DNA of 64,000 bases from Verrucomicrobia bacterium UBA1629 (GTDB lineage Bacteria > Verrucomicrobiota > Kiritimatiellia > RFP12 > UBA1067). The stretch covers positions 28,976 through 92,975 of the forward strand of contig DCMF01000098.1 in the NCBI GenBank assembly GCA_002321305.1, in the 5' to 3' direction. Shown here piece by piece: positions 22,413-63,915 of this stretch (the stretch's first letter is position 1; each line of letters opens with the position of its first letter). Below the pieces are notes generated by a model. It was not told the origin of the DNA. It did not search any database and was given only the letters and a program-made list of their open reading frames with translations. The translations under genes were made by a program, and so were the position numbers.

Positions 22413-22470
22413 GGACTTTCTCCTATTCAAGATGATCCGAATTATACCAAAAAATGGGCCGTCCCGTGGG
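22413..22470 (-). promoter_or_regulatory. Promoter of the C10-peptidase gene: TTTTTTGGTATAAT extended -10 and AGGAGA RBS.
   Basis: Minus strand reads ggcccaTTTTTTGGTATAATtcggatcatcttgaatAGGAGAaagtccATG. Confidence 0.45.
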
Positions 22471-25400
22471 TTAGAGGAACTTGCCCGTGACGGATTCGGC
22501 ACAGGCGCGGATCGTGGGGACAGGACCCTCGCAGACGAGACGGCCGCCCTTGTCGCCGCCGCCCGGCCCCAGGTCGATGATCCAGTCCGCGCACTTCATG
22601 ACGTCCGTGTTGTGCTCGATGACGACGACCGTGTTGCCCTGCGCGCGCAGGGCCAGCAGGATCTTCATCAGTTTCGCCACGTCGTCGAAGTGCAGCCCCG
22701 TCGTCGGCTCGTCGAGGAGGTAGAGCGTCTTGCCCGTCGAGCGGCGCGAAAGCTCCGTCGCGAGCTTGATGCGCTGGGCCTCGCCGCCCGACAGCGTCGT
22801 CGCGGACTGTCCGAGCTGGATGTAGCCGAGGCCGACGTCGACGAGCGTCTTCATCTTGCGCGCGAGAGACGGCACCTTCGCGAAGAACTCGTACGCCTCG
22901 GCGACCGTCATCGACAGGACGTCCGCGATGGTCTTGCCGCCGTAGGTCACTTCCAGCGTCTCGGCGTTGAAGCGCTTGCCGCCGCACTGCTCGCACGTCA
23001 CGTAGACGTCGGGCAGGAAGCTCATCTCCAGCTTCTGCACGCCGTCGCCGCCGCAGACTTCGCAGCGTCCGCCCTTCACGTTGAACGAGAAGCGCCCCGC
23101 CGTGTAGCCGCGCGCCTTGGCGGCCTCGGTCTGCGCGAACAGCTCGCGGATCTCCGAGAAGAAGCCGACGTAGGTCGCCGGATTCGAGCGCGGCGTGCGG
23201 CCGATCGGCGACTGGTCGATCTCGATCACCTTGTCGAAGTTCTCCAGTCCCGTCAGCTTGCGGTACTTGCCCGGCACGGCCTTCGCGCCGTAGAAGTGCT
23301 TCATCAGCGCCCGCTTCAGCGTCTCGTCGATCAGCGTCGACTTGCCGGAGCCGGACACGCCCGTCACGACCGTGAACGCCCCGACCGGAATGTGGACGGT
23401 GATGTTCTTCAGGTTATGCTCGCTCGCGCCGGAGAGAGTGAGGCAGGGAGAATTCGTCGAATAATCGAATCGACGAATGCTCGAATCGCTGCCGCGCACG
23501 CCCTTCATTCGACGATTCGACAATTCACCGATTCGATTATTCGACGATTCGACGATTCGATTATTCGACGATTCGATTATTCGATTATTTCCCTTCCGCA
23601 AATACTCGCCCGTCAGGCTCTTCGCCTTCAGCAGCCCCTTGAAGTCGCCCTGGTACATGACCTCGCCGCCCTCGCGTCCCGCGCCGGGGCCGAGGTCGAT
23701 GATCCAGTCCGCCGCGCGCATCATCTCCTCGTCATGCTCGACGATGACGACGGTGTTCCCTCGGTCCCGGAGGCCCTTCAGGGTCGCGATCAGCCGCTCG
23801 TTGTCGCGCGGATGCAGACCGATCGTCGGCTCGTCAAGGACGTAGAGGACGCCCGTGAGGCCCGAGCCGATCTGTGTCGCGAGGCGGATGCGCTGCATTT
23901 CGCCGCCGGAGAGCGTCGCCGCCGCACGGTCGAGCGTCAGGTAGTCGAGGCCGACGTCGAGCAGGAACTGCAGGCGGCGCGTGATCTCGGCGAGAATGTC
24001 CTTGAGGGCCGCGAGCTTCGAGAGGTCGAGCGACGAAAGGTCGGCGAGAGCGGCGATTTCTTCTTTTTGACTTGGGGGGCGTGAGGGACGAGAGAGACAC
24101 GAGGCCCTCGCGTCCCTCTTGGCCCTCACGTCGCTCACGTCAGATGGGACAATCGCCTCCTTCAACGAATCGAAAAACGCCTTGGCCTCGCCGACGGGGA
24201 GCGCCATGACGTCGCTGATCGTCTTGCCGGCGACCGTCGCCGCGCGGGAGAACTCGTTCAGCCGCGCGCCATGGCACGTGGGACAGACGCGATAGCTCTG
24301 GTAGGCCTCGTACTTCGCGCGCGTCTCGTCGTCCTCGGCCTCGTCAAGCCGCTTCTTCAGCACGGCCAGGACGCCCTCGAACGGACGGTCCACCGAGCGC
24401 CACGGCAGCACGAGGTCTTCCTTGAAGCCGTGCATCAGGTCGTGGCGGAACTTCGCCGGCAGCTTCTCGTAGGGCGTATCGAGCTTCACGCCGGACTGCT
24501 TTGCGATCTCCTCCAGGAGCGCGTTGTAGTACATGATCGCGTTGTGCCCCGCGCGCCGCCACGGGTGAATGCACTCGCGCAGGGGCAGCGTCTTGTCCGG
24601 CACGACCAGGTCCTCGTCGAAGTAGTAGAGCTGGCCGAGACCGCCGCACGTCGGACACGCGCCGAACGGCGAGTTGAACGAGAAGGAACGCGGCTTCAGC
24701 TCGTCGAAGGAAAGTCCGCAGTCGACGCAGGCGTTGAGCTCGGAGAAGGAAATAATCGAAGGAATAATCGAATGATCGAATGATCGAATTTTCGAATGGC
24801 GTTCCGCCCAAGAACGAGAAGAGGATGACTCTCCACCATTCATTCGATTACTCGACGATTCGACAATTCGATTATTCGACGATTCGACCATTCGATTATT
24901 TCCTCCCAGCACTTCGACTTTCATCACGCCCTTGCCGGTCTTGAGGGCGAGTTCGACCGAGTCGGTGAGGCGCGTGCGGTCGCAGGGCAAGACGAGGCGG
25001 TCAATGACGACGTCGATGCTGTGGGCCTTCTTCTTGTCGAGTTCGGGCACCTCTTCGAGCAGATACGTCGCGCCATCGACGCGCACACGCGCGAAGCCAT
25101 TTCGCTTCAACGTCGCGAAGACGTCCTCGTGGCGTCCCTTCTTCCCCTTCACGACCGGGGCGAGAAGGAGGATCTTGAGACGAACGTCTTGACTTGAGGG
25201 ACTGGAGGGGCGAGAGGGGCTGGAGGCACTCGCGTCGCTCAGGTCACTCTTGTCTCGCACGTCAGAAGACTCACTCGCCTGACAGACATCCTTGCCCATT
25301 TCCTCCGGCAACCGCTGTATCGCATCGACGATCTGCTCGGCGGACTGGCGGGTGACGGGCTTGCCGCACTTCGGACAGTGCGGCGTCGCGACCGAGCCGT

Positions 25401-25734
25401 AGAGGATGCGCAGGTAGTCGTGGATCTCCGTGACGGTCGCGACGATGGAGCGCGGATTGCCGCTCGTCGTGTGCTGCTCGATGGAGATCGCCGGGGACAG
25501 GCCCTCGATCTTCTCGACGTCCGGCTTCTCCATGCGGTCGAGGAACTGACGCGCATAGGCGGACAGCGACTCGACGTAGCGGCGCTGGCCCTCGGCGTAG
25601 AGCGTGTCGAAGGCGAGGGACGACTTGCCGCTCCCGGAGAGGCCGGTGACGACCGTCAGAGAGTTGCGGGGGATCGTGACGTCGATCCCCTTCAGGTTGT
25701 GGACACGTGCGTTGGTGATGACAATGTCAGACAT
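22471..25734 (-). CDS. uvrA: Excinuclease ABC subunit A (UvrA). It is enlarged to 1087 aa by four in-frame repeat-element insertions.
   Basis: N-terminal [37 protein letters not shown], both ABC modules, and zinc-finger cysteines. Inserts are [20 protein letters not shown]..., [28 protein letters not shown]..., [26 protein letters not shown] and [25 protein letters not shown]. Confidence 0.95.
23449..23593. repeat. Family B element (inverted arrays of CGAATAATCG / CGATTATTCG units around a short GC-rich core), in frame in uvrA.
   Basis: gaattcgtcgaataatcgaatcgacgaatgctcgaatcgct...cattcgacgattcgacaattcaccgattcgattattcgacgattcgacgattcgattattcg. Confidence 0.8.
24071..24152. repeat. Family D palindromic element, in frame in uvrA.
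   Basis: ggggcgtgagggacgagagagacacgaggccctcgcgtccctcttggccctcacgtcgctcacgtc. Confidence 0.7.
24748..24903. repeat. Family B element, second copy in uvrA (inverted arrays flanking a roughly 45-bp core).
   Basis: ggaataatcgaatgatcgaatgatcgaattttcgaatgg...cattcgattactcgacgattcgacaattcgattattcgacgattcgaccattcgattatttcc. Confidence 0.8.
25188..25285. repeat. Family D-like element, in frame in uvrA.
   Basis: gacttgagggactggaggggcgagaggggctggaggcactcgcgtcgctcaggtcactcttgtctcgcacgtcag. Confidence 0.6.
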
Positions 25735-63814: not shown

Positions 63815-63879
63815 ATCGCACATTTGTTTTGAGGGCGGAAGATGCACCCCGCGCGTGGCGAGGGCACACTCCACCCAGT

Positions 63880-63915
63880 TTATTTCGTAGCGAATTATAC
63901 CAAAAATCGCCGCGC
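63880..63915 (-). promoter_or_regulatory. Promoter of giant gene 3, ATTTTTGGTATAAT extended -10.
   Basis: Minus strand reads ggcgATTTTTGGTATAATtcgctacgaaataaactggg. Confidence 0.45.

Follow-up and report, generated by a model that had tools for sequence, protein, structure and literature searches.

The closest described relatives of the element reported here are the TGn class of sigma-70 promoters of Escherichia coli and the −16 region (TRTG) of Gram-positive bacteria, in which a TG lies one base before TATAAT, the −35 element is weak or absent, and the element precedes the first gene of its transcription unit. Among Gram-positive bacteria this is the majority promoter form, according to the part of PMC3824568 that refers to Mitchell et al. 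2003. The RpoD consensus of Campylobacter jejuni consists of a −16 element, TTTTTTTG, followed by a −10 TATAAT, with a poorly conserved −35 region, and its −16 T-tract/TG contributes to promoter activity (PMC3824568). Here we describe a 13-nt element, TTTTTGGTATAAT, found with its close variants upstream of three giant secreted-protein units in 64,000 nucleotides of Verrucomicrobia bacterium UBA1629 (Kiritimatiellia; assembly GCA_002321305.1, contig DCMF01000098.1, positions 28,976 to 92,975). This whole stretch is called the window below, and its positions are counted from its first letter. The three sites are best explained, with a probability of roughly 0.85, as near-consensus extended −10 promoters that would be used by the primary sigma-70/RpoD-type holoenzyme, are general in the clade and carry no regulon signal.

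It is a known kind of promoter, met in an uncultured lineage for which no promoter literature was found; our searches gave no publication linking Kiritimatiellae to promoter structure. The features listed above for E. coli and the Gram-positive bacteria all recur here, and the TGn form is the majority form in this clade as the −16 form is in Gram-positive bacteria. What differs is the base after TG, which is G in 55% of sites, the RAWTW context, often with a T-run, in DNA of 60–70% GC, and the preferred −35 spacing of 18 nt with TTGnC. The likeness to C. jejuni goes further, as T-tract, TG and TATAAT there form almost literally the 13-mer and act as a general housekeeping promoter (PMC3824568). 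A T-rich −16 region ending in TG, TTTTT(T)G, is present at all three of our sites. The two bacteria are unrelated (Campylobacterota versus Kiritimatiellota), and C. jejuni is AT-rich and has a periodic T/AT upstream signal in place of a −35 element. Upstream of the sites described here no such signal with a period of 10–11 bp was seen by eye; the segment from −40 to −9 is G/C-rich with a weak TTG at −24/−23.

Three giant units with the same promoter words

A motif search of the window found two exact copies of the 13-mer and one copy with a single mismatch, TTTTTGGTATTAT, all on the minus strand, each in the right orientation and upstream of its gene (Table 1). When up to two mismatches are allowed the number of sites rises to five, compared with 0.03 predicted by dinucleotide shuffles; the two additional ones lie at htpG and inside coaE, upstream of rho. 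An A/T-run followed by TGG and TATAAT or TATTAT had been reported for the three units in the preliminary description, which also called such a block conspicuous in high-GC DNA, and both observations hold. The window has about 66% GC, and therefore an AT-rich block does stand out in it. Each of the three hexamers matches TATAAT in at least five of six positions, with A2 and T6 kept, and is preceded by TGn, in all three cases TGG. The −35 region is weak: none is recognisable at giant 1, and giant 3 has TTGTCC (63918-63923) at a spacing of 18 nt, comparable with the TTGCCT of the lipoprotein/giant-2 operon. These properties, together with the upstream position, the orientation and the conservation seen at the C10-peptidase gene and at the lipoprotein operon, bear out the view that an extended −10 promoter stands before each giant transcription unit.

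The three units are quite different in what they encode. Giant 1 has a Peptidase_C10 domain (Pfam PF01640, E=4e-41); 28 nt separate the end of its −10 hexamer from the ATG at 22412, and this spacer contains an AGGAGA Shine-Dalgarno sequence at 22419-22424. In the second unit the spacer between the hexamer and the ATG of the lipoprotein gene (54783) measures 45 nt. The stop codon of this gene overlaps the ATG of giant 2 (ATGA at 54349-54352), and therefore the two form one operon, in which giant 2 is predicted to be translationally coupled to the lipoprotein gene. For giant 3 the distance from hexamer to ATG (63814) is 79 nt, or about 70–90 nt if the alternative in-frame ATGs at 63823 and 63802 are taken into account. 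The N-terminus of each of the three proteins resembles a signal peptide.

The gene order giant 3, small lipoprotein, giant 2 (41837-63814) is kept in several other assemblies (L141-L146), at lipoprotein identities of 92–56%. Together with the ATGA overlap, this conserved order suggests that the three proteins function together.

Could the promoter have been copied together with paralogous genes? We rejected this, as the giants share no common domain architecture and are not paralogs; their sole link is a weak local match of giant 1 with giant 3 (31% identity over 149 amino acids). Nor do the similarities extend far beyond the core. The promoters of giants 1 and 3 have 16 nt in common (TTTTTGGTATAATTCG), those of giants 2 and 3 have 14 nt (GCGATTTTTGGTAT), and outside the core only chance-level 7-mers are shared, so that comparison of the three window promoters gave no common operator. 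The short length of the shared word is the only point in favour of chance AT-rich words or of dispersed copies of a repeat or mobile element. Against both stand the five sites where 0.03 were expected, the loss of identity after 14–16 nt with unrelated flanks, and the retention of the sites at orthologous positions in other genomes. We regard this explanation as ruled out, its likelihood being negligible.

Table 1. Positions of the promoters, genes and associated elements in the window.
Feature	Positions	Strand	Description
Giant 1 promoter	22441..22454	−	T6 run + TGG + TATAAT, hexamer 22441-22446; exact 13-mer at 22441-22453
Giant 1	17478..22412	−	1644-aa secreted C10-family cysteine peptidase, with CarboxypepD_reg domain
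Lipoprotein/giant-2 operon promoter	54829..54841	−	T5 + TGG + TATTAT, hexamer 54829-54834; one-mismatch copy of the 13-mer
Conserved block GTCGATAACCCTTGCC(T)	54853..54869	−	holds −35 TTGCCT (54853-54858), 18-nt spacer
Lipoprotein gene	54349..54783	−	first gene of the operon; 144 aa, lipobox LLVAGC
Giant 2	41837..54352	−	about 4170 aa; Laminin_G_3 and TSP3 repeats
Giant 3 promoter	63894..63906	−	T5 + TGG + TATAAT, hexamer 63894-63899; exact 13-mer
GC-rich hairpin before giant 3 promoter	63911..63935	−	9 G-C pairs, 7-nt loop, then GCGATTTTTG
Giant 3	54908..63814	−	2968 aa; N-terminal Gly_rich_2 domain, signal peptide
htpG promoter TTTGTGCTATAAT	14988..15000	−	10 nt before htpG ATG, leaderless-type
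ATTTTGATATAAT inside coaE	29339..29351	−	about 190-335 nt upstream of rho; top score of the position weight matrix in the window
Acyl-carrier-protein gene promoter TATATGATATAAT	TGATATAAT at 2828-2836	−	7 nt before acyl-carrier-protein ATG
Glycosyltransferase promoter TATAAT	2837-2842	+	9 nt before family-2 glycosyltransferase (GT2) gene
acpP-lpxC promoter TAGTATAAT	4878..4883	−	−10 hexamer without TG
Secretin-gene promoter TTGTATACT	33416..33421	−	upstream of secretin gene 30125-33385; found with the position weight matrix

The same architecture is found at other genes of the window, nearly all of which lie on the minus strand. Exact TATAAT hexamers number seven against 0.2 expected; all seven are in promoter-like positions and five of them follow TGn. 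A position weight matrix (PWM) built from the TATAAT sites of related genomes, with the window left out, gave ten matches at a score of at least 11 (0.35 expected), which correspond to nine distinct sites, all in upstream positions. Only three of these nine belong to the giants; the remaining six serve chaperone, lipid, secretion-machinery and termination-factor genes. The chaperone is the htpG product (Pfam HSP90, E=6e-130). The site inside coaE may start a rho transcript with a long leader. The preliminary description had stated that the sequence does not appear at the housekeeping genes of the window. This is correct for copies with at most one mismatch, and it fails for the architecture as such, since a T-rich stretch with TGn and TATAAT is present at htpG, at the acyl carrier protein (ACP) operon and upstream of rho.

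The source contig was also followed for 7.4 kb beyond the start of the window (L149), where a unit of tRNA-Thr and tuf has the promoter TTTATGGTATACT, with TTGCGT, 18 nt and TATACT; its spacer ends in ...CATTTATGG, and 24 nt separate its hexamer from the tRNA downstream. This promoter is a two-mismatch form of the 13-mer. The window itself has no tRNA that we could find and no rpoD gene, and the search of the whole window against Rfam at gathering thresholds gave no match to any family, and hence no riboswitch or other known RNA in the leaders.

A general promoter consensus in related Kiritimatiellae

How common is this element in the clade, and which genes does it serve? A genome scan with HtpG gave 79 loci. 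Of these, 56 at 69–99% HtpG identity form the comparison set (865 kb); they come from gut or rumen metagenome-assembled genomes (MAGs) labelled Kiritimatiellae or Kiritimatiellaeota, or more loosely Verrucomicrobia or Lentisphaerae. The remaining loci, from other phyla (373 kb), served as controls. Against the expectation of a first-order Markov model, TGnTATAAT is 38-fold enriched in the relatives (137 versus 3.6 expected, about one per 6 kb), compared with 11 versus 7.2 expected in the other phyla. Taking relatives and window together, TGn precedes 61% of the 232 TATAAT hexamers, with TGG as the commonest form (78/232). The commonest 7-mer before these hexamers is TTTTTGG, with 13 occurrences including two of the window's own, and AATATGG is next with 11.

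The profile of the 137 TGn sites shows A/G at −8, A at −7, A/T at −6, T at −5 (81%, the most conserved position outside TG) and A/T/G at −4, followed by TG, by G at −1 (55%) and, after TATAAT, by A at +1 (55%). The clade consensus is thus RAWTWTGG-TATAAT-A, and the A/T-rich stretch before TG belongs to it. A −35 element is weak throughout the class: 16 sites have a TTG beginning at −24 and nine have one at −23, C stands at −20 in 47%, and TTG occurs at a spacing of 18 nt in 12% of the sites and at 17–18 nt in about 18%. The TTGTCC of giant 3 and the TTGCCT of the lipoprotein operon, both with 18-nt spacers, match this weak class-wide signal.

The genes behind the element in the relatives are diverse. 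The exact 13-mer stands upstream of an ABC-transporter ATPase (L006), adenylosuccinate lyase purB (L011), gyrA (L013) and phosphofructokinase (PFK; L071). Copies with one mismatch precede enolase (L016, L019), a DEAD-box helicase (L039), htpG (L018), a class-V, cysteine-desulfurase-like aminotransferase (L032), NAD(P)HX dehydratase (L011, L052) and a class-I/II aminotransferase (L002, L005), which we take to be of the LL-diaminopimelate type. The rpsB-tsf operon of L147 has the promoter GATTTTTGATATACT.

In the preliminary description the shared words were seen as evidence that the giant units are co-regulated as a secreted-protein regulon. Spelled out, such a reading would make the 13-mer a dedicated signature, read by a special sigma factor or regulator. 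In the window, copies with at most one mismatch do occur only at the three giant units, and all three have the rarer T5-6+GG form. The rest of the evidence goes the other way. The 13-mer is not restricted to a coherent gene set, as the identical word stands before gyrA, purB, PFK and an ABC ATPase in the relatives, and forms with two mismatches are found at htpG in the window and at tRNA-Thr/tuf elsewhere on the contig; nor is it distinct from the housekeeping consensus, being equal to RAWTWTGG-TATAAT. No operator or activator site is shared outside the core, the lipoprotein promoter having a conserved −35 block of its own that is missing at the other two, and the relatives of giant 3 use TGC or TGA without a T5 run. 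Association tests on the 107 TGnTATAAT sites of the htpG loci with an identifiable downstream open reading frame, with a T-run defined as at least four T, gave no association with a signal-peptide-like N-terminus (5/20 versus 17/87, p=0.55) or with a leader longer than 12 nt (p=1), and none that was significant with proteins of at least 800 amino acids (odds ratio 2.9, p=0.17). The preliminary description had itself named a motif ubiquitous upstream of unrelated genes, as a general sigma70 consensus would be, as the outcome that would speak against its proposal; this is what we find in the relatives and, in looser form, on this contig. The motif being general upstream of unrelated genes, the co-regulation claim is unsupported. 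A dedicated regulon is very improbable and close to refuted.

Two observations weigh against our preferred explanation of a clade-general promoter. The T5-6 + GG form is present at three of three giants and at only about 5% of the relatives' TATAAT sites. Assuming independent sites, the chance of this is about 1e-4, and it rises to about 1e-2 when any three of the approximately ten window promoters are allowed; the comparison was made post hoc, and there may be a residual subclass effect of this form. Furthermore, the evidence of generality comes from the 64-kb window, from 7.4 kb of the same contig and from the loci of relatives, and the housekeeping copies on the contig itself are two-mismatch forms only.

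Conservation of the promoters and the role of the T-run

No C10-peptidase gene was found by tblastn at the relatives' htpG loci. A metagenome scan with the N-terminus of giant 1 recovered orthologs and paralogs of this giant, and the promoter can be followed through them. L081 (81% identity) and L082 (71%) have TTTTTGGTATAATTC upstream, L085, L087 and L127 (about 39–41%) have T7-9GGTATAATTC, and L109 has TTTTTGGTATAATTG. Altogether the T-run with TGGTATAATT is kept in six of nine C10-peptidase orthologs (L081, L082, L085, L087, L109 and L127), and the other three (L083, L123, L126) keep TGGTATAATTC without the long T-run. Throughout this range (81–39% identity) 22–39 nt with a GGAG-type Shine-Dalgarno sequence lie between promoter and ATG.

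The aligned upstream regions of the lipoprotein operon give a similar picture. The sequence TTTTTGGTATTAT is kept in L141-L144, at 92% and 73% protein identity, and is replaced by TTATGCTATCAT in L145 and L146 at 56%. Since the C10-peptidase gene and the lipoprotein operon keep their promoters in orthologous position, these are real promoters, and it is very likely that the shared 13-mer works as one. The most invariant stretch upstream of the lipoprotein gene is GT(C/A)GATA(A/G)CCCTTGCC, which spans the −35 element and is kept down to 56% identity. A near-copy of the block, GTCGACAACCTTGTGCC, lies at about 54886-54902, 33 nt (approximately three helical turns) upstream of GTCGATAACCCTTGCC. 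The block is absent from the promoters of giant 1 and giant 3, which is evidence that the regulatory DNA of the three units differs and is not shared. Block and near-copy may be a binding site for a regulator specific to the lipoprotein/giant-2 operon.

For giant 3 no true promoter orthologs were recovered: on the syntenic contigs either the sequence breaks off within the gene or the 10-kb limit of the flank is passed. Glycine-rich words dominated the protein search, which gave five partial relatives; two of these (L147, L148) were inspected. At 44–47% identity to the giant-3 N-terminus they have TGCTATAAT or TGATATAAT about 95–115 nt upstream, which is the general architecture with TGC or TGA and no T5 run, and not the 13-mer.

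What then could the T-run contribute? One answer is that T-tract + TGG is the strongest version of the general promoter, like the −16 TTTTTTTG of Campylobacter, and would give high expression without a shared regulator. This would agree with its presence at all three giants, its retention in six of nine C10-peptidase orthologs and in two of three species at the lipoprotein operon, its occurrence at the plausibly highly expressed gyrA, PFK and purB, the 81% conservation of T at −5 and the contribution of the C. jejuni T-tract/TG to activity (PMC3824568). The odds ratio of 2.9 for large proteins points in the same direction without being significant. At the same time no gene class is significantly enriched, AATATGG (regarded as equally common) and the tuf TTTATGG lack a full T-run, and conservation among orthologs is conservation by descent and lends no independent support. 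On balance we consider a strength subclass rather unlikely.

Another answer is that the T-run is primarily the U-tract of an intrinsic terminator belonging to the preceding gene and merely abuts the TGnTATAAT of the next. Such an overlap is suggested by the 9-bp all-GC hairpin followed by GCGATTTTTG at 63894, by hairpins that end just before the T-run at 22441 and 14988, and by strong hairpins before some promoters of relatives (L012, L050). However, folding is no better than in shuffled sequences (z = −1.3, +1.1, 0.0 and −1.1), no hairpin exists at 54829, and the positions −8 to −4 are A/T-rich throughout the class. Over 142 sites hairpin stability is equal with and without a T-run (Mann-Whitney p=0.76), and we rejected the terminator tail as a general rule. 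An overall explanation of this kind is improbable, more so than a strength subclass. It is retained locally, at 63911-63935, where the hairpin is terminator-like and its T-tail is the T-run of the giant 3 promoter, although its folding energy is no better than that of shuffles; here a terminator overlapping the promoter may insulate giant 3 from upstream transcription.

Returning to the preferred explanation of a general extended −10 promoter, its mode of action can be proposed by analogy with E. coli and Gram-positive models. Sigma region 2 would read TATAAT and region 3.0 the TG one base upstream, and a primary holoenzyme reading both would make a good −35 element unnecessary. The −35 contribution would be small or nil: giant 1 lacks the element, and the other two have TTGCCT and TTGTCC, each at an 18-nt spacing. 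The A/T tract may add strength. With transcription starting about 7 nt downstream of the hexamer, the leaders would be about 20, about 38 and 60–85 nt long for the three giant units. In gut Kiritimatiellae the same element is the usual start of transcription and precedes chaperone, replication, glycolysis, purine, tRNA/translation and lipid genes, at many of them 6–11 nt from the ATG, so that their mRNAs would be leaderless or nearly so. As judged from these features, each giant gene would have a strong constitutive-type promoter of its own, with no common regulator indicated.

Leaderless-type gene starts and the meaning of the consensus

In the Kiritimatiellae loci 100 of 226 TATAAT hexamers lie 6–11 nt before an ATG, compared with 21 of 168 in other phyla. 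At htpG, TGnTATAAT is followed by 9–11 nt and ATG in 24 related genomes, with TTTGGTATAAT in L018, L038 and L071, and in the window the spacing is 10 nt at htpG, 7 nt at the ACP gene and 9 nt at the GT2 gene. A Pribnow box 6–11 nt from the start of many genes is the arrangement of GeneMarkS-2 group C (Actinobacteria, Deinococcus-Thermus), which is classed as leaderless; Kiritimatiellae are not among the group C clades named in the main text of PMC6028130. The giant units are not of this type. In them 28, 45 and about 79 nt (up to about 90 nt with the alternative starts of giant 3) separate the hexamer from the ATG, so that the giant mRNAs would carry leaders, and giant 1 has a Shine-Dalgarno sequence. 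Leaderless-type starts appear to be pervasive in gut Kiritimatiellae. We found no description of them for this phylum in the literature; the single paper found with both "Kiritimatiell" and "leaderless" is a Shine-Dalgarno survey, in which the class is listed with 63%.

A few other features of the window and of its relatives deserve mention. Two TATAAT hexamers abut on opposite strands (2828-2833 on minus, 2837-2842 on plus), one facing the lipid cluster with ACP and acyl-AMP ligase and the other the glycosyltransferase, both with leaderless spacing. The locus L002 of a GTDB representative with 99% identical HtpG (9940-10000) has a different htpG upstream region, with TAGAAT lacking TG and unrelated sequence further up, which implies promoter turnover or rearrangement between near-identical strains. 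HtpG proteins 75–86% identical to that of the window also occur in L015, L021, L022, L028, L033 and L044, whose bins are labelled Alistipes onderdonkii, Faecalibacterium prausnitzii, Methanomethylophilaceae, Barnesiella, Gemmiger and Lachnospira, respectively. In two of these, L028 and L044, htpG is also directly preceded by the promoter of the clade. All six are probably mis-binned contigs in public MAGs.

Between htpG and the RNase HII gene lies a low-GC island (10902-13047, 56–59% versus about 66%) with a XamI-type restriction enzyme and a C5 DNA methylase, which was probably acquired horizontally. Upstream of uvrA there is a non-coding gap of 780 nt (25735-26513) without an Rfam match and dense in short tandem repeats. 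A 13-nt unit, CTAGCCTTAACTT, occurs about nine times, units of 19 and 26 nt alternate, and there is a purine-rich tract. The gap also has inverted repeats of 28–39 nt, including two exact 28-nt direct copies.

A broader proposal can be made for the clade, namely that it relies on largely −35-independent extended −10 promoters, nearly half of them leaderless-spaced, with T-tract+TGG as a top-strength class for very highly expressed genes. As a whole this is doubtful. Its clade-level part, −35 independence and leaderless spacing, is well supported and possibly already implicit in gene-finder surveys; the idea that the T-tract+TGG class is reserved for very highly expressed genes, such as those of giant surface or secreted proteins, is speculative. 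If the proposal were true, it would mean pervasive leaderless mRNAs in a lineage of the PVC (Planctomycetes-Verrucomicrobia-Chlamydiae) group.

The analysis guards against a wrong conclusion: in a high-GC genome, promoters that share the same words can mimic a regulon signature, and here the sharing reflects only the nearness of strong promoters to the lineage consensus. As a by-product it gives rules for the clade, that is, TGnTATAAT with G preferred, A/T at −8 to −4, a weak TTGnC −35 element at 18 nt and a frequent spacing of 6–11 nt to the ATG. Consensus and spacing rules help to call operon starts and to correct start codons in MAGs of uncultured Kiritimatiellae. For the organism itself, the promoters suggest that the three giant units are each transcribed independently, and probably strongly.

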